64,000 bases of DNA from a bacterium (GTDB lineage Bacteria > SAR324 > NAC60-12), in contig CBDBHR010000030.1 in the NCBI GenBank assembly GCA_965205865.1, positions 1,191,866 through 1,255,865 on the forward strand. Reading direction: 5' to 3'. The notes under the pieces are model-generated. The model did no database searches and was not told the origin of the DNA. It worked only from the letters and a program-made list of their open reading frames with translations. A program made the translations under genes and the position numbers. Numbering within the stretch: the stretch's first letter is position 1; every line of letters starts with the position of its first letter. This document shows, in pieces, positions 7,307 to 63,344 of this stretch.

Positions 7307-7505
7307 GAAGAATTCGGCAAAATCAAGAATTAAAAATTCCCAAAAACCTTCCCCTTTTCTCTGGGGAACGGAGATAAATTACCTCAACTAAAAGGTGGGC
7401 TTCAAGAAAAAAAGAAGAATTCGGCAAAATCAAGAATTAAAAATTCCCAAAAACCTTCCCCCTTTTCTCTGGGGAACGGGGATAAAGTACCCCAACTAAA
7501 GAGAG
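7307..7505. repeat. Tandem direct repeat, ~107-bp unit x2, in the divergent intergenic region
   Basis: gaagaattcggcaaaatcaagaattaaaaattcccaaaaaccttcccc(c)ttttctctggggaacgg.gataaa.tacc.caactaaa occurs at 7307-7395 and again at 7414-7502. Confidence 0.8.
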
Positions 7506-7678
7506 ATGTCAAAAAAAAAAAGAGGGAATTGGGATTGACTATTTTCTTTGATGATTTTATAAAAAAAATTGAATGGGACACCGCCCATCCCCCTTGAAGG
7601 AGTTGGGGGCCGTCTCACTCAAAGATTTCAACATATTCTAGTAAAAGTCAGCAGATACAACCATACAAGGAGAAAACA

Positions 7679-14037: not shown

Positions 14038-15642
14038 TGCGCCAGGAAAGCTGGCAAGAAATAGAGAGTGAAAGTCTCTTACTCGGTAAGGCAGTAACGA
14101 CCCGCCGAGTCCCCGAGTCATGAGTGGTTATTCGCAAGGATAGGCGCTAAGCGTTGACAGGGGAGAACATAGGCTCGGTATTGAGCTCCGAAATCATAGT
14201 CTCAGGCGCTGACCTTGTGGTCTGGTGGGGAAGGCAATATCAACCGAAGGCGTTAGCGTGAGTCTCGGCTGAGCCTGGCGGAGTCAAAGACCCGGTGCAT
14301 GTGTGGAAGTTTCTTGATCGGAACCTGGGAGATCCTGAAGACGACTGTCAACATTCTATTGGTAGTCGGATCGGGAAAATTAATAAATAACCCCGATATC
14401 TACGTCTTCAGGAAGTCGGACAAGTTCGTAGTAGCGTGAGCAGCCGACAAGGCTGTGGATTTTGGAGAGTGAAAGTCTCTCTGTCGTCAGTTTCCCATTC
14501 GGGCGACTAGCATATCCGGTGCGCTTAGCAGGTAACTGCTTTGCGTTCTGCCCGGAAGTAAAAGTCACCGTCTGCTTTGGACGAGAGTCCATAGTGGGAG
14601 CCAACAGGGTGGCGAGCAAACCTGGAGGCCTGAACATTAGTGAATGATTGCAGCTCCGAAAGAGACTTCCGTCGTGAATTGGCTTGACGGTGTGTTGCCC
14701 AACCGCCGACCCGCTCGCTACTCGGGGAAGGCCGAAGTTCCAAGGGAAGTAATGGGAACAGGCACCTTGGAGGGAGCCGGAGTATGGATCCAAGCATCCA
14801 GGGAAAGATCCACAGAGATAACGTCGGGAAGGGCCAACTTCCAGCAGGGACTCGCAATAACCTGCAAGGACCTACCGTATAGGGTAACACCGAAATCGGC
14901 AGGAGGATTTTGGTCTGGCGCATGAGTCCGTATGAGCGATGAAGACCGGGTAACGCTGGTCGAGGGGATGCTTGGACATCTCCCTTTTGGAGGTAACACC
15001 TCTAAAAGGCAAAGGGGCTCTCGGTAAATGGCGGGCATTTCATGAACCACTGCCGAACTTGTGTCGGTCAAGAGTGTCACCACAAAGAATGTCGAGCTGG
15101 AGATCAAATCACTCACTCCAGGGGTGAATGCAGGCGAGTGCTTAAGCTTCGGATTGGGTGGGAAGGGTTTCTGGGGAAACGCTGTTGCTGCCAACCGGAC
15201 TCGGGAAATCCGACCGTCCGGGATGAGAGGGGGGCTTGCGGAAACGTGATGCAGGGTCTGACGCCCTTTTGCCACGAAACCGGAAACGGGGGATACATTG
15301 GAAGTCGTTGACCTAAACATGCGCGCGCCGTATTTCTACCCGGCATGAAGCGGCGAACAATGAGATCATTTGCAGAGAGTAACAATGCAAAGGAAATCAA
15401 CGGAGCCTGTGGAGCAAAGGGACTTGGCTGAGAGGAATTCTGCTTGCCCTCCTGTGTTCGGAACTCAGAGGCCGTAAAATCAGAGAGCGGTTTAAGCAGG
15501 GTGCGCCAAACGGCAACGTTTGAGCGTCTGACTCGAAGCAGGAGCCGGATGCGTTAGCAGCGCACGTCCGGATCTGTACCGGAGGAATGACGAAAGGTGG
15601 CTGGAAACCACTATAAGTCAGTTCTTTACGGTGACTGCATAC
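14038..15642 (+). ncRNA. Group II intron RNA, apparently ORF-less (no intron-encoded RT/maturase); 3' boundary approximate
   Basis: Starts GUGCG at 14038, followed by the GCCAG-GAAA-CUGGC hairpin (DI). The D3-like block ...gggtaacgc...ggcaaagggg resembles Ll.LtrB-type IIA introns. Domain V candidate at 15542-15575: GAGCCGGAUGCG-loop-CGCACGUCCGGAUC with the AGC triad. The D6-like region follows. No ORF with RT motifs exists on either strand. Confidence 0.55.
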
Positions 15643-32464: not shown

Positions 32465-32885
32465 GAAGTAGTCCCTGAGGGACGAAAGGAAGTAGCCCAG
32501 CGATTCATCGCTGGGAACAAAAGATAGTCTCCTTCAAAGTCCCGGAGGGACGATACAACAATGAGGTTTCATGTCCCATTCCTACATCAGCAATCATCTT
32601 CATGGTGTCTTTTGCGCAAAAAACCGAGTTGAGATGATGACTCCTGAAATCAAAAAGCGCCTTTTTCCTTATTTGACATCATGAGCGTTATATTTGGGAG
32701 TAACTCGCTGGATCGAAGAAGTGTCGTCCCTCCGGGACTAGCTGAGGAGGAGGGGGGTTCCTTTCCCAGCGATGAATCGCTGGGCTATTCCCTTTCGTCC
32801 CTCTGGGACTAGCTGAGGAGGGGGTTCCTTTCCCAGCGATGAATCGCTGGGCTATTCCCTTTCGTCCCTCCAGGACTGCATTATA
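32465..32885. repeat. Cluster of short hairpin repeats inserted between the two permease genes of cluster 2
   Basis: Hairpin cccagcgattcatcgctggg at 32496, and its reverse complement twice (32766, 32833) inside a tandem ~70-bp unit. Multiple gtccctNNgggac palindromes. Confidence 0.7.
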
Positions 32886-56188: not shown

Positions 56189-57436
56189 ATGTCTACTGCT
56201 CAAAAAGAATTATACGAACTCGGAGAAATGCCGGAACCGGGAATGGTTCCACAGAAAATGCATGCCTTCCTGGTACGTCAGGATCGCTTTGGTGAACCTC
56301 GCAATGCCTGGAAAAGGGAAATCATCCCCACTCCCGAAATTGGCCCGAAAGACGTCCTGGTTTATGTGATGGCCAGCGGCATTAACTACAATAACGTTTG
56401 GGCTGCTTTGGGTTATCCGCTCGACGTGATTGCAGATCGTCAGAAAAAAGGGGAGTCCGAAGATTTCCATGCTGGCGGCAGCGACTGTTCCGGGATTGTC
56501 TGGAAAGTAGGGAATGCGGTGAAAGACTGGAAAGTGGGGGATGAAGTGGTCGTTCACAGTGGTTGGTGGAAACCGGACGATCCCTGGGTGCTTTCAGGAA
56601 AAGATCCGATGCTTGCTTCCAGTACTCGAATTTGGGGTTATCAGACCAACTATGGCAGTTATTGTCAATTTGCCCGGGCGCAATCCCATCAATTGCAACC
56701 GAGGCCCCGGCATCTCACCTGGGAAGCCTCGGGTTGCTATATGTTGTGCGCATCCACGGCATACCGCATGCTGATGGGATGGGAATCTCATATCGTCGAG
56801 AAGGACGACGTGGTTCTGGTCTGGGGAGCTGCCGGAGGACTCGGCAGTTTGGCATTACAAATCACCGCTGCTCACGGAGGGAAACCGGTTGCAGTGATTT
56901 CTGATGAAGACAAACGACAATACTGTTTGAACCATGGCGCTGTAGGAGTGATCAACCGCAAGGACTTTGACCATTGGGGTCCCATGCCTGACACGACGAC
57001 AGCGGAATATAATCCTTGGATTAAAGCGGCGCGTTCTTTCGGCAAAGCAATTTGGCAAATCCTGGGAGAGCGTAAAAATCCCCGCATTGTCTTTGAGCAT
57101 CCTGGAGAATCCACCTTACCCACTTCTGGCTTTGTATGTGACACGGGTGGTATGATTGTGATTTGCGCAGGAACCAGCGGATACAACATCACTATGGATT
57201 TACGTTACCATTGGATGATGCAGAAACGCTTCCAGGGCAGTCACCTTTCCAATGATGAGCAGGCTGCCGCCGTAAACCGGCTTATTGCTGATAAAAAAGT
57301 GGATCCCTGCTTATCCGAGACCTTGACTTTCGACCAAATTGGCTATGCCCATCAGATGATGCATGAAAACAAACACCCCTATGGCAATATGGCCTGCCTG
57401 GTCAACGCCACGGAGAAAGGGCAGGGCGCTTCTTGA
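56189..57436 (+). CDS. ccr: Crotonyl-CoA carboxylase/reductase family enoyl reductase (MDR superfamily)
   Basis: LYELGEMPEPGMVP...SGINYNNVWA...AGGSDCSGIV...VWGAAGGLGSLA: a CCR-family pattern. Confidence 0.75.
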   Translation: MSTAQKELYELGEMPEPGMVPQKMHAFLVRQDRFGEPRNAWKREIIPTPEIGPKDVLVYVMASGINYNNVWAALGYPLDVIADRQKKGESEDFHAGGSDCSGIVWKVGNAVKDWKVGDEVVVHSGWWKPDDPWVLSGKDPMLASSTRIWGYQTNYGSYCQFARAQSHQLQPRPRHLTWEASGCYMLCASTAYRMLMGWESHIVEKDDVVLVWGAAGGLGSLALQITAAHGGKPVAVISDEDKRQYCLNHGAVGVINRKDFDHWGPMPDTTTAEYNPWIKAARSFGKAIWQILGERKNPRIVFEHPGESTLPTSGFVCDTGGMIVICAGTSGYNITMDLRYHWMMQKRFQGSHLSNDEQAAAVNRLIADKKVDPCLSETLTFDQIGYAHQMMHENKHPYGNMACLVNATEKGQGAS

Positions 57437-57723
57437 TGATAAAAATCAATCACTGTAACGATTCGGGATTCTTCGGAGACTCCTTCGATTTGAGCACGCA
57501 TTTTGCGTCATGAAATAGAGAAAGGATTTTATGTTTTGGGTGGTATTCAGGATACAGATCTTATGGAGGATGGGAGAACAGATGCTCTTTCTGTTTGACC
57601 TAGTCCAGTTGTTTCTCCAGGTAGTAACTGATGTTACGTGCACGATTTTTGCAGTTATGCGTCTCATCGAGTTGTCATTCCTGGCGAAGACCAGGAATCC
57701 ACTTTGCTAGCGATCCAGGGTGA

Positions 57724-58008
57724 CTAAAACGTTTCATATAAATCTATCCATTGAGGATTATTTTTCTCAATGAGTTCGATTTTCCAAGCTCGTTTCCATT
57801 TCTTACGTTGTTTTTCTCTCCGGAGAGCAGCTGTTACCTCTGAAGTGGTCTCATGGTATATCAATTGATGTACTTGGTATTTACTGGTAAATCCTTCTAT
57901 GAGATTGTTTTTATGTTCATAAACTCTTCTAAGAAGATCATTGGTCACTCCAATATATAAAGTGCCAATTCTTTTACTTGCTAAGATATAAACGTAGTAG
58001 GTTTTCAT
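57724..58008 (-). CDS. GIY-YIG nuclease-domain small protein
   Basis: YYVYILASKRIGTLYIGVTNDLLRRVYEHK is a GIY-YIG motif; ~95 aa. Flanked by inverted copies of gtcattcctggcgaagaccaggaatcc (57676-57706 and 58018-58050). Confidence 0.75.
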   Translation of the reverse strand: MKTYYVYILASKRIGTLYIGVTNDLLRRVYEHKNNLIEGFTSKYQVHQLIYHETTSEVTAALRREKQRKKWKRAWKIELIEKNNPQWIDLYETF

Positions 58009-58329
58009 GATGGCGACTCCTGGATTCCTGGTCTTCGCCAGGAATGACACACTTGTGGGGAAGCGTATTCATGGAAACCGCTGAATGCAAAAAATATTCA
58101 TGTAACATGACGTCTCGACTTTGAACATTTTATCCAACTTTTGGGTTTAATAAAATCAATGTCTTACGAATCTGTATTGGAATTAATACAGGTCGTATCA
58201 TCAAAAATGGAAAACAGTAACCTGTATTAATTTTTTACAGAATTTCAACCAATTGATATTATTGAATAATGAAAATTAAAAGAATAAAGAATCCACCTTC
58301 TTAGAAGGTGGTTTTGATGGGCCCCTGGA

Positions 58330-58500
58330 AGGGGCGGCTCGTGATCGTACTCGTGAGCCGTGCTCGTGAACGAAACGGCATCCCAGAGAATCCAGGATTC
58401 CCTGCCGTCTCTTCTATTCGTAATCCCCATCTCAAGGGAATCGGGAACGTTTCTATCGAGCACGTGCACGAGCACGATTACGAACACGAGCACGTTTCTG
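58330..58500. repeat. Imperfect long inverted repeat (~40-bp arms around a ~70-bp spacer)
   Basis: ctcgtgatcgtactcgtgagccgtgctcgtgaacgaaacg ... cgtttctatcgagcacgtgcacgagcacgattacgaacacgag. Confidence 0.4.
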
Positions 58501-59055
58501 GCAGAGCCGATTATCTCTGACCACGCCCAAAGGACGTGGTTTCATCAGATAAAATAAATCGAATGTCCAAAGTCCAGGAGGGGGAATAAAGTTGTTGTTT
58601 TTTTCTGAGGGTTAAAGAATTTCTGCTGGTCTTTTGCTTTCTCTTGTGATAGTTCTCGAGAAATCGTCTTTGGCTGAAGGTTTTATTTCAATTTCGCTCA
58701 TATTTATTTAGCCGAAAGTCATGTAAAACATCATATCCTCACCAGAGGATTTTTAGAAACTGTCAACGGGGAATTGAAAAGTGCCAAAAATGTTGACTTC
58801 CGTATTTCTATATGAAAAAGTATTTTCGTTGATCATAAGAATACACTCATGAATGAATGAGTCGCCATATTTAAAAAAATCTTGATACGTTTGCAGAGCG
58901 ATTATAATATTTTATTCCAGGGACGGAAAAGCAATAATGAGATCCTTCGCTTTGCCGCTCGGCGTACCGTCAGGATGACATGAAAGTCTGAAATTAACCC
59001 GTTTCAAGTATAAAAAATCTTGATAATGAGGTGGATATGAGAGTAAACTCAAAAA

Positions 59056-59123
59056 CCAGTTCCCAGTTCCCAGTTCCCAGTTCCCAGTTCCCAGTTCCCA
59101 GTTCCCAGTTCCCAGTTCCCAGT
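59056..59123. repeat. Microsatellite (CCAGTTCC)x8.5
   Basis: Perfect 8-bp tandem repeat read directly from the sequence; degenerate gttccc copies continue to about 59230. Confidence 0.9.
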
Positions 59124-59365
59124 AATAAGTTCCGAGCACCAAGCTCCCAATCACAAGTTCTACCTCCTTATATTATCTCGACTTCAGGGAGAGATCCCTA
59201 AGATTCCTCGTTCCCAATTCCCCGTTCCGGGAACGGAACGGCAATGGGGAATTTGGAAAATCATCGACGCCTGAGTGCGTCGGTTTATGGTTCATTGCCC
59301 AATCCTGGAGCCAATGAATCGGTTTTTTGATCACTTGAAAATGAAGGAGACCCAATGTGTAGAGC

Positions 59366-59525
59366 AATCGTCGAGAACATGCTTTCTGGAACGAAAGCAG
59401 GTTTTAAAGCAACCCGCAATCTTGTTTTTAATCAAAAAGCAAAAAGGAGCACCATGAACCGTCAAAAAAGTAGAGAAATCGTCGAGAACGTGCTTTCGGG
59501 AATCAAAGCAGGTTTTAAATCAATC
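59366..59525 (+). repeat. Duplicated ~47-bp hairpin-containing segment in the leader of SBP-3
   Basis: aatcgtcgagaacatgctttctggaacgaaagcaggttttaaagcaa and aatcgtcgagaacgtgctttcgggaatcaaagcaggttttaaatcaa, 111 bp apart; each carries a tgctttc/gaaagca stem. Confidence 0.6.
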
Positions 59526-59558
59526 CTTAATTATGAACATCCATTCGAAAGGAAAAAG

Positions 59559-61328
59559 ATGTTTAATCAAAGAAGCAGCTCAAAATTGAGCGCAACCCTG
59601 CTGGCTCTCATCCTGGGAGCAAGCGTCTTCATGGCTGGCCAGGTCTGGGCAGCCAAGTATGTGACGGACCCCACCAACGGCAAGATAGTGACCGCTCCGG
59701 AATACGGCGGGACATTCACCTATGCCATGAATAACGAACCTACCGCAGTTGACGTCTGGTTCCACCACGGGGCGGTACCTGTCATCAGTGGTGTTTTAGA
59801 GAAGCTAGGCACCGTGAACTGGGGAATAGATAGGGCCGAATATAACTTCGTGGGTCTGGTCCAGCCTGAATTTGCCACGACAGGGCAGCTGGCGGAAAGC
59901 TGGGAGATGCCCGACGACAGAACCATTGTCGTCAAAGTCCGCCAAGGCGTTCACTGGCATAATAAGGCACCGATGATCGGTCGGGAGCTGACTGCCAAGG
60001 ATATCGAATACAACTTTCACCGCTTGATGGGTCTGGGCAAGTTTGCCGAAGCCGGACCTACCAACATTACCCAGGTTCTCAGAACTGTGTCATTCGAATC
60101 GATAACGGCCACCGACAAATGGACGGTTGTTTTTAAGCTGAAGAAGCCACACCTCGGTGCGCTGATGGGTATCCTCGAGGACTGGATTGCTTATATGTAC
60201 CCCCCCGAGGTATTCGAGCAATACGGCGACGCTCAGGATTGGAGGAACCTGGTCGGTACCGGGCCCTTTATGCTGACTGACTGGGTCGAGGGCAGCTCTA
60301 TGACCTGGGACAAGAATCCTGACTACTGGGGCTACGACGAAAAATACTCGCAGAACCGGCTGCCCTATGTTGACCAGATAAGGGCCCTGACTATGCCCGA
60401 AGTGGCAACACAACGGGCGGGACTGCGCTCGGGTAAGCTTGATGGCTTGTATGGCGGGACTGCGATAAAGTCTGTCGACGCGGCAGAGAGCCTTGAGCGG
60501 GCCAACCCCGAAATCAAGCTGTGGAAGAGGGTCACTGCTTCGGTCTTTAGTACTGGTCTTAACATCAATAAGCCGCCCTTTAACGACATCAGGGTGCGCA
60601 AGGCAATGCAGATGGCACTGGACCTTGAGACAATTAACAGTGCCTTCTTTAAGGGTCATGGAGATACGACACCTCACGGGCAGGTAGGGGATGCTGTCCC
60701 CGGGTATTTCATCCCATTTGAAGAGTGGCCCGCCGAGCTCAAGAAAGTCTATGACTATAACCCGGAAGGGGCAGAAGCCTTGATTGATGCGGCTGGGTAT
60801 CCGCGCGGCGCCGACGGCATTAGATTCAAGACCAAGTTGATGCACAACGTGCACAAGGATTTGAACTATTACCAATTACTCGCTGCATACTGGAATAAGA
60901 TTGGCATTGACGTTGAGATTGATTTTCCGCCTATTGCTACCTGGGTGGCTAGAAGAACCTCTCGGGATTTCGAAATGATCGAACACGAAATGGCCTATGG
61001 GAGTCTGTCTGATCCTCTCAATCCTGTGAACCGCTTTACCAACGTTCCGTGGAACAGCGCCGCAGTGGAGGACCCGGTTTATGACGCCATGTTTGAAGCC
61101 GCCGGAGCCGCTACCACCATCGAGGAGCTGCAGAGGCTGGTTAAAGAGCTGGATATGTACGCGATAGAGAGGCACTGGACCGTATGGAGTCCTATGAATC
61201 CAAATTTTGACGCCTTCCAGCCGTGGATCAAAGGTTACGACGGTGAATTCACGTTGTCATACATTCATAGACATTTCGTCCTCGCCCGCCTCTGGATTGA
61301 CCAGGAACTGAAGGACAGGACCCAGTAA
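59559..61328 (+). CDS. ABC transporter substrate-binding protein, family 5 (cluster 3); start taken at MFNQ
   Basis: Signal peptide; EYGGTF, KAMQMA and WIDQELK signature; ~60% GC. Confidence 0.8.
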   Translation: MFNQRSSSKLSATLLALILGASVFMAGQVWAAKYVTDPTNGKIVTAPEYGGTFTYAMNNEPTAVDVWFHHGAVPVISGVLEKLGTVNWGIDRAEYNFVGLVQPEFATTGQLAESWEMPDDRTIVVKVRQGVHWHNKAPMIGRELTAKDIEYNFHRLMGLGKFAEAGPTNITQVLRTVSFESITATDKWTVVFKLKKPHLGALMGILEDWIAYMYPPEVFEQYGDAQDWRNLVGTGPFMLTDWVEGSSMTWDKNPDYWGYDEKYSQNRLPYVDQIRALTMPEVATQRAGLRSGKLDGLYGGTAIKSVDAAESLERANPEIKLWKRVTASVFSTGLNINKPPFNDIRVRKAMQMALDLETINSAFFKGHGDTTPHGQVGDAVPGYFIPFEEWPAELKKVYDYNPEGAEALIDAAGYPRGADGIRFKTKLMHNVHKDLNYYQLLAAYWNKIGIDVEIDFPPIATWVARRTSRDFEMIEHEMAYGSLSDPLNPVNRFTNVPWNSAAVEDPVYDAMFEAAGAATTIEELQRLVKELDMYAIERHWTVWSPMNPNFDAFQPWIKGYDGEFTLSYIHRHFVLARLWIDQELKDRTQ

Positions 61329-61597
61329 CAGGCCGACTGGAAGTACTTATGGACCGGGCAGTACTGCCCGGTCCACTCTAGTACTGCTGTCAGAAAATGG
61401 TTTGACCTTCTGTTAAGGTAATAATGAGTCCTGTTTGTCATTCCGGGCGAAGACCCGGAATCCGGGGGACTTACCCTAGAACTCCCAGATCCCGGATCAA
61501 GTCCGGGATGACACAGAATGGGTCAATCACTTCGTAACGCCTGTACCAGGATACACCGCGTTTCCCTGCCAATTTCAAAAATGATGAGGTCCGTCCC

Positions 61598-62605
61598 ATG
61601 AGAGCCTATATCATCAGGCGCTTATTGCTGATAATCCCCACCTTGTTTATATTGACCATCCTGGTCTTTCTCTCGGTGCGCTTCATCCCGGGCGATGTCA
61701 TAGACGTAATGATGAGTAGGATGGAAATGTACTTTAACTGGGACGAACGTGACCGTGAAGTTCTTGAGCATAAGCTGGGATTAAACGTGCCTGTGCACGT
61801 GCAGTATGGACGCTGGATAGGAGTGTTGCCGACCCCTGACTGGGTTACCGGTGAGTCCCGCTACAACGGTCTCCTCCAGGGCACCCTTGGCCAGTCACTG
61901 CTTCGCGGCCAGGAGGCGGTAGAGGAGAAGATAATAGGTAGATTGCCAGTGACCATTGAGCTTGGAGTCATGGCAATCGTGATCGGGCTCGTGATAGCGC
62001 TGCCAGTCGGCATCTATTCGGCGATTCGGCAGGATACAGCCGCCGACTACGCGGGGCGCTCCATCGCCGTCATCGGCCTGGCAACGCCTAACTTCTGGCT
62101 GGGCATCATGGTCATGATCTTCCCGGCACTCTGGTGGGGCTGGTCGCCACCGATGGAGCTGGTTTCTTTCACGGAAGACCCGCTGGGGAATCTCGGGGTG
62201 TTCCTCATTCCCAGTCTGATTCTGGGGACGGCCATGGCTGCAGCCACAATGCGGATGACGCGCACCATGATGCTGGAGGTGCTCAGGCAAGACTATATCA
62301 GGACCGCCTGGTCAAAGGGACTCAAGGAGAAGGTCGTGGTGATCAGACACGCCCTCAAGAATGCCCTCATCCCGGTCGTGACCCTGATCGGCTTGCAGTT
62401 GCCGATCCTGGTCGGCGGCGCCGTGATCATGGAGAACATCTTCAACCTGCCGGGGCTCGGGCGTCTCTTGCTGAATGCCCTCAATGACAGAGACTACCCG
62501 ATGGTTTCCGGAATAAACCTGGTTTTCGCCACTGGCGTGGTGGGGATCAATCTATTTATCGACCTGTTCTATGCCTTCTTGGACCCAAGGGTGCGGTATG
62601 AGTGA
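61598..62605 (+). CDS. ABC transporter permease, DppB-like (cluster 3)
   Basis: MRAYIIRRLLLIIPT...MRMTRTMMLEVLRQDYIRTAWSKGL. Confidence 0.85.
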   Translation: MRAYIIRRLLLIIPTLFILTILVFLSVRFIPGDVIDVMMSRMEMYFNWDERDREVLEHKLGLNVPVHVQYGRWIGVLPTPDWVTGESRYNGLLQGTLGQSLLRGQEAVEEKIIGRLPVTIELGVMAIVIGLVIALPVGIYSAIRQDTAADYAGRSIAVIGLATPNFWLGIMVMIFPALWWGWSPPMELVSFTEDPLGNLGVFLIPSLILGTAMAAATMRMTRTMMLEVLRQDYIRTAWSKGLKEKVVVIRHALKNALIPVVTLIGLQLPILVGGAVIMENIFNLPGLGRLLLNALNDRDYPMVSGINLVFATGVVGINLFIDLFYAFLDPRVRYE

Positions 62606-63344
62606 ATCAAAGCGACGGGGCCGGCTGTCGGATTTCTTCATCAGGCTGCTCAAGGAGAAGCCGCTCGGTACTGTCGGTCTGGCCGCGACGGCGCTGAATG
62701 TGCTCATCGCAGTCCTGATCGGCGGCACTTCCGGATTCATTGGCGGGAAATTCGACCTGGTGGTGCAGCGCTTTGTCGATGCCTGGATGTTTCCCGGGAC
62801 TGCTGCTCTTGTTAACCATCATGTCCATCGTGGGGCGGGGTTTGCCACAGATCATCCTGGTCCTGGGGGTCACCGGAGGCATCGGCGGCTCCCGAGTCAT
62901 CCGAGGTGCCGTAGTGGGCATTAAAGAGAATGACTATTTTCTGGCAGCCCGGCCGTAGGCACTCCCACGCGCCATATCCTGATCCGGCATGTCCTGCCCA
63001 ATATCATGGCGCCCCTGATCATCATCTTCTCGATCAACATTGGCGGCGTTATCATTACCGAGGCATCGCTGAGCTTCCTCGGATACGGGCCGCCCGTCGA
63101 GTTACCCAGCTGGGGTGGCATGCTCAGCCGGGAAGGACGCACCTACATGGAGATGGCGCCCTGGCTGGCGCTCTTTCCCGGTCTTGCCCTGACGATTGTC
63201 GTCTACTCCCTCAACATGTTCGGCGATGCCATGCGGGACCTGCTCGATCCCCGGCTTCGGGGTGGTGAGGGTCGTTACGGCACCGCAAAAGGGAGACGCA
63301 AAAGAGGTCTCCTGGCCCGATTGATCAACCCTTTCAACTGGTAA
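62571..63344 (+). pseudogene. DppC-like permease (cluster 3), inactivated by an internal ~186-bp deletion, indels near 62790 and a premature stop at 62955
   Basis: Alignment to the cluster-2 paralog: KPLGT joins directly to VGLAATALNV (losing TM1 and the GTD motif); a frame change follows VDAWM; AARP* replaces AARAVGTPTRH. The remaining frame (63006..63344) still encodes the conserved C-terminus. Confidence 0.8.

Follow-up and report, generated by a model that had tools for sequence, protein, structure and literature searches.

A length-variable heptanucleotide array at the head of a conserved leader cassette upstream of SBP_bac_5 transporter genes in a SAR324 bacterium

The window analysed here is a stretch of 64,000 nucleotides from a SAR324 bacterium (assembly GCA_965205865.1, contig CBDBHR010000030.1, forward-strand positions 1,191,866 to 1,255,865). 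Within it, a 2.1-kb gap is flanked on one side by an ADH-like gene and a small GIY-YIG gene and on the other by genes for an SBP_bac_5 substrate-binding protein (SBP) and an ABC permease, and this gap holds a perfect tandem repeat of 68 bp at 59056-59123 (Table 1). On the plus strand the array reads (CCAGTTC) × 9.71 and on the minus strand (GGGAACT)n. An initial sequence-only reading of the window had reported a perfect tract of ~68 bp at exactly these coordinates, some 430 bp from the SBP start; the distance is 436 bp when counted from the end of the array to ATG 59559, the start codon that is followed by a signal peptide. The unit of eight bases that it proposed, (CCAGTTCC) × 8.5, was not borne out: the array matches itself at 61 of 61 positions at lag 7 and at 25 of 60 at lag 8, which rules the octamer out, and Tandem Repeats Finder (TRF) returns a period of 7, 9.7 copies and 100% matches. 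The remark that the unit is not a multiple of three holds for seven bases as it did for eight.

The array is the sole perfect repeat in the window among units of at least 5 bp present in at least three copies, and a chance origin is thereby ruled out. The degenerate gttccc copies that had been described as following the tract are real and extend to ~59162. In the register AGTTCCC, this tail (59124-59162) consists of about six decayed heptamers (AGTAATA, AGTTCCG, AGCACCA, AGCTCCC, AATCACA and AGTTCTA) (family D1, 73-92% identity). Together, array and tail belong to a 145-nt stretch that is rich in C and poor in G (52 C, 21 G). A 14-nt sequence, AAAAAATCTTGATA, occurs in exact copies at 58874 and 59012; the two promoter-like elements, P1 and P2, are listed in Table 1.

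Table 1. Features of the array locus. Positions refer to the window; L173 is one of the paralogous loci described in the text.
Feature	Position	Strand	Description and basis
ADH-like gene	56189-57436		Upstream neighbour
Small GIY-YIG open reading frame (ORF)	57724-58050	-	Pfam, E = 1.6e-13
P1, predicted sigma-70-like promoter	58882..58910	+	TTGATA-N17-TAATAT, preceded by AAAAAATC; consensus scan; similar element in L173
P2, promoter-like element	59020..59049	+	TTGATA-N18-TAAACT; consensus scan; 5′ edge of cassette; ends 6 nt before array
Putative upstream ORF	59037..59201	+	GAGGTGG-N2-ATG, MRVNSKT(SSQFPVP)n...; reads through array; probably not a gene
Array	59056..59123	+	Perfect heptanucleotide (CCAGTTC) × 9.71; lag-7 match, TRF
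Degenerate tail	59124..59162	+	About six decayed heptamers
Inverted-heptamer hairpin	59210..59258	+	Left arm GTTCCCA ATTCCCC GTTCC, 59210-59228; G-rich right arm GGGAACGGAACGGCAATGGGGAATTTGGAA, 59229-59258
Second leader hairpin	59263..59284	+	CGACGCC...GCGTCG; -11.2 kcal/mol, z = -3.35; kept in all paralogs
Terminator-like hairpin with T6	59289..59328	+	Just 5′ of AAGGAG box; kept in 11/11 cassette copies
Leader motif, two copies	59359-59420 and 59470-59531	+	111-nt spacing; hairpin UGCUUUC-N6-GAAAGCA
SBP_bac_5 substrate-binding protein gene	59559..61328	+	Pfam PF00496, E = 4e-66; signal peptide MFNQRSSSKLSATLLALILGASVFMAGQVWAA from ATG 59559
ABC permease gene (BPD_transp_1)	61598..62605	+	Pfam; next operon gene

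The array heads a module of ~640 bp (~59010-59660 in the window) that comprises a promoter-like element, a 5′ leader and a signal peptide. Not noticed in the sequence-only reading, this makes the array a fixed part of a multi-copy leader cassette and not an isolated microsatellite. When SBP homologs 52-71% identical to the window protein are compared with it, the first 68 'residues' match better than the mature domain does, and the same upstream module, with its components in the same order, is present at a paralogous locus whose SBP is 71% identical at the amino acid level (L172) and at another where identity is 52% (L173/L174/L175). From the 5′ end, this order is an A-tract, TTGA(T/A/C)A-N18-TA(A/G)ACT, the array 6-7 nt further on, the degenerate tail, the inverted-heptamer hairpin, the second hairpin, the terminator-like hairpin with its T-run, the AAGGAG box, two motif copies spaced by 111 nt and the signal peptide. 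P2 takes the forms TTGAAA, TTGATA or TTGACA, then N18, then TAAACT or TAGACT in the paralogs. In a four-way alignment, conservation starts abruptly at the A-tract and -35 hexamer, upstream of which identity is 0-17%, continues at 82-95% up to and including the signal peptide and falls off only within the mature domain (52-71%). Every component, and an array, is present in all 11 cassette copies examined, which represent five distinct loci, and the position of the array is constant throughout; a single array occurs in the 64-kb window and in each locus fetched from the ENA, in every case tied to a cassette. The array is thus very probably the hypermutable component of a conserved leader cassette, and what is new here is that the tract is the constant hypervariable part of a cassette common to a large SBP_bac_5 paralog family.

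Between the terminator-like hairpin and the signal peptide, the cassette carries a sequence that gene callers translate. They start the SBP at ATG 59355, which yields a protein of 657 aa with an N-terminal extension of 68 aa; we rejected this start. Variable columns in the extension are distributed 13/13/13 over the three codon positions, compared with 6/3/13 at the start of the mature domain, and in the absence of a third-codon-position excess we take 59355-59558 to be a conserved nucleotide element and not protein. The two motif copies within it (59359-59531) could represent an undescribed leader RNA element. Each copy is preceded by AAGGAG-N4/5-ATG, and one to three copies are found in 72 of 134 SBP homologs; the fact that the motif is read through in so many homologs indicates that the cassette family is large. 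The motif units measure 111 and 99 nt, both multiples of three, which is odd for a non-coding reading. Rfam gave no relevant match at E <= 5 in 57400-59650, nor in the leaders of L118, L120 and L123. The sharp 5′ edge of the cassette at the -35 hexamer, taken together with its 82-95% conservation, would point to concerted evolution or recombinational spread.

Alleles of the array were located on other metagenome contigs via the permease and SBP proteins, and the loci were labelled L001, L002 and so on. An identical copy of the permease protein is encoded on three other contigs. Among alleles that share the gene order of the window, the array has 14.71 (L116), 9.71 (window), 8.71 (L117) and 6.71 (L003) copies, while outside the tract the sequences are 98.7-99.8% identical over ~8.7 kb; the longest and the shortest of these four (L116 and L003) both come from sample ERZ25072854. 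In the second gene context, with a peptidase M20 gene upstream, there are 8.71 (L002) and 3.71 (L001) copies between sequences 99.1-99.7% identical from 58612 to 62631. The paralogous locus L173/L174/L175 carries 24.86 copies, 18.86 copies and an interrupted array of 4.43+7.86 (~12), and the other paralog, L172, carries 9.86. Across near-identical strains, copy number therefore spans 3.7 to 24.9. The degenerate tail can change too, being 14 bp shorter in L003, exactly two units. In one locus with a 95% identical SBP (L123), the entire array is built from a variant unit, CCAGCTC × 4.57. A 6-unit (42-bp) difference between alleles recurs in three of the 15 pairs in the main group, which is unremarkable.

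Several of these contigs are labelled as low coverage (2x-7x), so errors of the assembler in a repetitive tract have to be considered as the source of the length differences. However, all allele differences are exact multiples of 7 bp in perfect arrays, the flanks are at least 98.7% identical and the surrounding sequence is almost invariant, the arrays, at 26-174 bp, are small compared with long reads, and the pattern is seen again at three loci and in nine samples. We therefore regard an assembly artefact as very unlikely, to the point of being negligible. At three loci or more, near-identical genomes differ by whole 7-bp units that the array has gained or lost. The description of the tract as slippage-prone is borne out by these whole-unit differences between flanks at least 98.7-99.8% identical, and the comparison of repeat number among strains, proposed in the sequence-only reading, gave a positive result (14.71, 9.71, 8.71 and 6.71 copies in one gene context, 8.71 and 3.71 in the other).

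We propose that copy number acts at the level of the leader. The array would start at about +1 of a transcript from P2 and would thus be part of a leader of ~500 nt, in which the number of units could adjust how strongly the downstream SBP operon is expressed, by degrees and in a heritable and reversible way, as a rheostat rather than as a frameshift-based ON/OFF switch. In the RNA-level mechanism that we regard as the likeliest of the possible routes, the unstructured, C-rich array competes with the local left arm for the G-rich segment of the inverted-heptamer hairpin, and the pairing partner is predicted to switch between at most 3.7 and at least 5.7 copies. Such a switch would reshape the leader upstream of the terminator-like hairpin, as (ATCTTTC)n does in the 5′ untranslated region (5′-UTR) of H. 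influenzae hmw. An alternative route would be the Rho factor, for which additional unstructured, C-rich and G-poor RNA could provide an entry site.

Predicted folds are consistent with this picture. The array RNA of the sense strand is fully unstructured (68 nt, minimum free energy (MFE) of 0), and 106 nt past it lies the G-rich segment 59229-59258, complementary to the repeat unit. The inverted-heptamer hairpin to which this segment belongs is predicted at -27.7 kcal/mol (z = -3.39), and none of 200 shuffled sequences was as stable. In MFE folds of natural alleles, the partner of the G-rich arm is the array at 6.71-9.71 copies and, at 3.71, the local arm of the hairpin. Across a synthetic series, the probability that it pairs with the array is 0.09 at 3.71 copies, 0.47 at 4.71 and 0.74-0.83 at 5.71 and above. 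On the sense strand, C is abundant and G scarce in all four array units found upstream of these SBP genes (CCAGTTC, CCAGCTC, GCTCACC and CCCGACTA), which makes a Rho-entry role for the unstructured RNA plausible as a model. Across heptamer arrays in general, the C-rich strand being the sense strand is a trend only (26 vs 15, p = 0.12).

A number of observations weigh against a regulatory role of this kind. The promoter and the +1 position are consensus predictions only. The terminator-like hairpin is marginal (-13.3 kcal/mol, z = -1.9, with 9 of 200 shuffled sequences as stable), the two leader folds differ in MFE by just ~1.4 kcal/mol, and folding during transcription would give the local hairpin an advantage. 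The local hairpin is also the predicted fold of L123, with its 4.57 copies of CCAGCTC, and RNAalifold applied to the cassette copies detected no covariation, the copies being too similar. Heptamer arrays are common in bacteria, mostly without an assigned function (PMC4692102), and all cassette copies may have an array simply because the cassette spread recently and carried the array along. Taken as a whole, a hypermutable heptamer in the cassette whose copy number tunes expression via the leader is our best explanation, and we hold it at even weight. That the array affects expression in any way at all we put just short of that, and the competing-pairing route in particular, which comes from fold modelling, we consider unlikely.

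The strong main rival is a neutral slippage hot spot: an intergenic heptamer that gains and loses units as a by-product of replication through it and has no effect on the SBP operon. Much of what we know of the unit is compatible with this. An exact 28-mer, (CCAGTTC)4, is present in more than 112 stretches among species-representative genomes, and the listed matches include genomes of Acidobacteriota, Bacteroidota, Cyanobacteria, Proteobacteria, Chloroflexota, Planctomycetota, the Candidate Phyla Radiation (CPR) and Streptomyces, with two or three loci in several of the genomes; of the two outcomes that the sequence-only reading had named as speaking against a contingency locus, a uniform repeat number is not what we see, while a tract shared with unrelated loci is. 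We considered a mobile element, such as a miniature inverted-repeat transposable element (MITE), as the carrier of the array and rejected it: an all-against-all comparison of 240 flanks revealed no shared unique sequence among the dispersed copies, only short matches to adjacent variant heptamers and, besides these, matches within one metagenome-assembled genome (MAG) or between close relatives. The flanks in the window had no match, and neither the cassette nor the window matched any of the named genome loci. Nor is there support for the unit itself being special. In viral contigs, which make up a different collection from that of the genome scan, CCAGTTC is matched once, its composition-matched scrambles 2 and 12 times and TAACTGA 32 times. 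It is the period rather than the particular unit that appears to be the special feature: more than 1 kb away from the seed arrays, the listed loci contain 22 further perfect heptamer arrays as against at most four for any other period from 4 to 15, the listed arrays are often blocks within compound period-7 arrays with a drifting unit (as in L040 and L036), and they sit within decayed heptamers with a period-7 autocorrelation of 0.44-0.48. An over-representation of heptamers has been reported and put down to polymerase geometry (PMC4692102, citing Mrazek 2007). The alleles of our array fall in every reading frame and over a wide range of lengths, with no constraint seen. On the other side of the balance, none of it decisive, the position and mostly also the unit are kept in 11 of 11 cassette copies at five loci whose coding sequences have diverged to 52%, the array lies exactly at the predicted +1 and beside a complementary G-rich arm, and a variable array has arisen separately in an unrelated leader belonging to the same SBP gene. 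Neutrality is a serious possibility, to which we give roughly one part in three of our belief.

Other ways in which copy number could matter fare less well. A classical contingency switch, in which the repeat alters -35/-10 spacing or the SBP reading frame, has in its favour a variable copy number and a unit that does not preserve frame. Yet the -10-like hexamer precedes the array, the SBP start is far away (436 bp downstream of it), stop codons intervene between array and SBP ORF in all frames, and no promoter-like pair brackets the array in the consensus scan; since it is neither in a conserved ORF nor between -35 and -10, the classical ON/OFF switch is excluded for practical purposes. Of the proposal that this is a contingency (phase-variable) locus, the hypermutability holds and the ON/OFF geometry does not. 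A leader-peptide frame switch would use the ORF that starts at ATG 59037 and runs through the array, so that copy number modulo three would set where the ribosome stops and produce three-state attenuation. All four paralog groups retain the Shine-Dalgarno-like box and the ATG, and depending on the allele the stop falls right after the array (TAATAA), at +75-79, at +148 (in hairpin 2) or at +177 (in the terminator-like stem). However, ATG 59037 is upstream of the predicted P2 start and would be present only in P1 transcripts, and the box is conserved no better than the cassette is on average. Translation in none of the frames would run to the end of the terminator, all three frames are open by chance because stop codons are absent from every frame of the unit, and there is no protein-level conservation; we accordingly consider this switch highly improbable. 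As a conserved protein, the ORF 59037..59201 was rejected, since among 11 alleles its stop lies at four different positions and all frames are represented. Somewhat less remote, though still improbable, is an effect of DNA structure, whereby G-quadruplexes (G4) in the template strand (GGGAACT)n or an i-motif in the plus strand would impede or promote RNA polymerase or replication to a degree set by copy number. The repeat is a canonical G3N4, its six overlapping G4 motifs on the minus strand are the only such cluster in the window, and ViennaRNA with the G-quadruplex option predicts that (GGGAACU)9 favours a G4. G4 formation in vitro is known for the closely related (GGGAATC)3GGG and (GGGACTG)3GGG, and where G-rich heptamers precede ORFs they are found preferentially on the antisense strand, as here (PMC4692102). 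Against it, Xanthomonas repeats lie within 50 bp of ORFs rather than at the distance seen here, and (CCAGCTC)n and (GCTCACC)n, at equivalent leader positions, have no G3 runs on either strand; with two of the four leader units lacking such runs, G4 formation cannot be their shared property.

The GCTCACC arrays come from a group of parallel GC-rich loci, L118-L122 (locus GC 0.61, SBP gene GC 0.54), in which the body of the SBP gene is 93% DNA-identical to window positions 59667-61328, starting from nt 109, while the signal peptide and the leader are unrelated to those of the window. Their leader has a short-unit array of its own, ~380-480 bp upstream of the start codon and downstream of a sigma-70-like promoter: (GCTCACC) at 14, 10+4, 4 and 4 copies and, in L120, an octamer, (CCCGACTA)5. 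That an array recurs in an unrelated leader hints at selection or at a mutational context common to both, and amounts to only one or two independent events. The unrelated signal peptide and leader in front of a 93% identical gene body point to recent horizontal transfer or recombination, with the junction where the signal peptide meets the mature domain. In L120, the region upstream of the SBP (2150-2560) contains about four tandem units of ~100 bp, each with a promoter-like pair TTGACA...TATACT, followed by the five octamers. Elsewhere in this group, three ORF calls of 29 aa spaced by 82 bp between permease genes (L118 5984-6237, also in L119 and L121) point to an 82-bp tandem repeat at this gene junction.

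How does the array compare with repeats of known function? In Neisseria opa, with (CTCTT)n, and H. influenzae hgp, with (CCAA)n, paralogs of exported binding proteins share a conserved 5′ region that extends over the signal peptide and has a hypervariable simple sequence repeat (SSR), and the tract of each paralog varies independently; there, the repeat is in the coding sequence and acts ON/OFF by frameshift. Unlike these, the array reported here lies in a predicted untranslated leader, from which we would expect no more than a graded effect. In Moraxella catarrhalis, uspA2 has its SSR, (AGAT)n, in the transcribed leader, where copy number modulates expression; this is a tetranucleotide at a single locus that encodes a surface protein of a pathogen.

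The closest parallel in architecture is the hmw system of H. influenzae, in which transcribed (ATCTTTC)n pairs with a G-rich region, RNase III cuts the hairpin and expression is inverse to repeat number (PMC12721329). Like hmw1A and hmw2A, the SBP locus has a 7-nt tandem array between a promoter (here predicted) and the start codon (PMC12721329, PMC8262952), a complementary G-rich segment downstream, a widely variable copy number and more than one paralogous locus, and by analogy any effect here would be graded rather than caused by frameshift. This leader architecture is why we favour a graded, leader-level effect. The two systems share no sequence homology; ours concerns a nutrient-binding protein and many paralogs instead of an adhesin and two, its host is an uncultured and apparently non-pathogenic bacterium, and its copy number goes down to 3.7, compared with at least 11 in natural hmw tracts.

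By its sequence the tract is a member of the bacterial G3N4 heptamer-repeat class, as found in Xanthomonas and Nostoc. Heptamers are over-represented among bacterial SSRs, and arrays of GGGAATC in Xanthomonas and of GGGGAYT/GGGACTG in Nostoc lie between genes, vary in length from one close relative to the next, are frequently arranged as inverted pairs and fold into G4 in vitro (PMC4692102). With these, and with the Anabaena and cyanobacterial short tandemly repeated repetitive (STRR) heptamers, our array shares a G3N4 unit (GGGAACT), an intergenic position and a G-rich strand that is antisense to the downstream ORF. It also has a nearby inverted partner array (59210-59258) able to form a stem-loop, and it varies in length and sequence between close relatives, with compound arrays and drifting units. 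Those repeats differ in occupying ~100-200 sites per genome, with ~4 units, at most 50 bp from an ORF end, whereas the array here has more units, lies at a distance of 436 bp from its ORF and is tied to one leader cassette. Among the dispersed CCAGTTC arrays, crude ORF calling placed 70 of 119 in intergenic sequence; the in-ORF cases are mostly from high-GC loci and evenly split by strand, which suggests spurious ORFs. The TAACTGA heptamers of Beggiatoaceae, Cyanobacteria and Bacteroidetes are likewise tandem, located in the 5′ regions of many genes and present as the same unit in distant phyla without an evident transfer mechanism, and a post-transcriptional role has been proposed for them (PMC4679880). 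They lie a few nt from the start codons of unrelated genes and mostly have 2-6 copies (PMC4679880); ours precedes the genes of one paralog family, occupies the 5′ extremity of a long leader and can have as many as ~25 copies. The spread of CCAGTTC across phyla is best read as independent origin. In the Xanthomonadales Coralloluteibacterium and Vulcaniibacterium (L036 6150-6741; L040 6255-7179), compound period-7 arrays run for hundreds of bp and the unit changes from block to block, with one block consisting of 48 copies of CGCCCTA.

Several observations concern the neighbourhood of the cassette and the rest of the window. The GIY-YIG ORF (57724-58050, minus strand) is flanked by a perfect 29-bp inverted repeat (57673-57701 and 58021-58049), an arrangement kept in L116 and L117 that looks like a compact mobile or selfish unit. 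It is followed by a 469-bp segment (58107-58575) that is found only in the window, L116, L117 and L003 having an unrelated 130 bp in its place; the segment carries imperfect inverted hexamer-like arrays, CGTGCT/CGAGCA (58337-58375 vs 58455-58494), and has no second copy in the window or in the fetched loci. Directly downstream, a segment of ~250 bp (58612-58857) is 89.6% identical to L001 1189-1436, where it stands immediately before a different ABC permease gene, and it may be another reused promoter module. Further away, the window contains three copies of the Acido-Lenti-1 RNA motif (32470-32877), two of them within a 67-bp tandem repeat, a group II intron domain (14071-14293; RF02005, 168 bits) and an intergenic 107-bp unit in two tandem copies with 89% identity (7307-7520). 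JGI metagenome scans with a flank-plus-repeat pattern and with the core of the leader motif gave no match, from which we conclude that the lineage is absent from that collection, and exact look-ups of the ADH, the 589-aa SBP, the 657-aa SBP and P0133 returned no database record.

Even if it is neutral, the tract is a ready strain-resolving variable-number tandem repeat (VNTR) marker for this lineage. The cassette also lends itself to the study of concerted evolution in regulatory DNA, since its promoter, leader and signal peptide have diverged less than the proteins under their control. To our knowledge, SSR contingency loci have with few exceptions been described in host-adapted pathogens, where the genes concerned mostly encode surface antigens; here, metagenomes provide direct evidence from an uncultured lineage that a heptamer tract varies at several paralogous nutrient-uptake loci. 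Should the proposed mechanism hold, copy number would set leader folding, the length of a Rho site or both upstream of an attenuator, amounting to an SSR-tuned attenuator, of which we know no earlier description. A family-wide form of bet-hedging, with dozens of paralogous peptide-type SBP operons whose cassettes each have a hypermutable tract of their own, is a speculative extension that we think doubtful; if true, the population would continuously yield cells with differing combinations of transporter expression. If copy number does affect expression, one member of an abundant and unexplained class of heptamers would acquire a function, and the logic of the contingency locus would extend to environmental or symbiotic bacteria and to metabolism.

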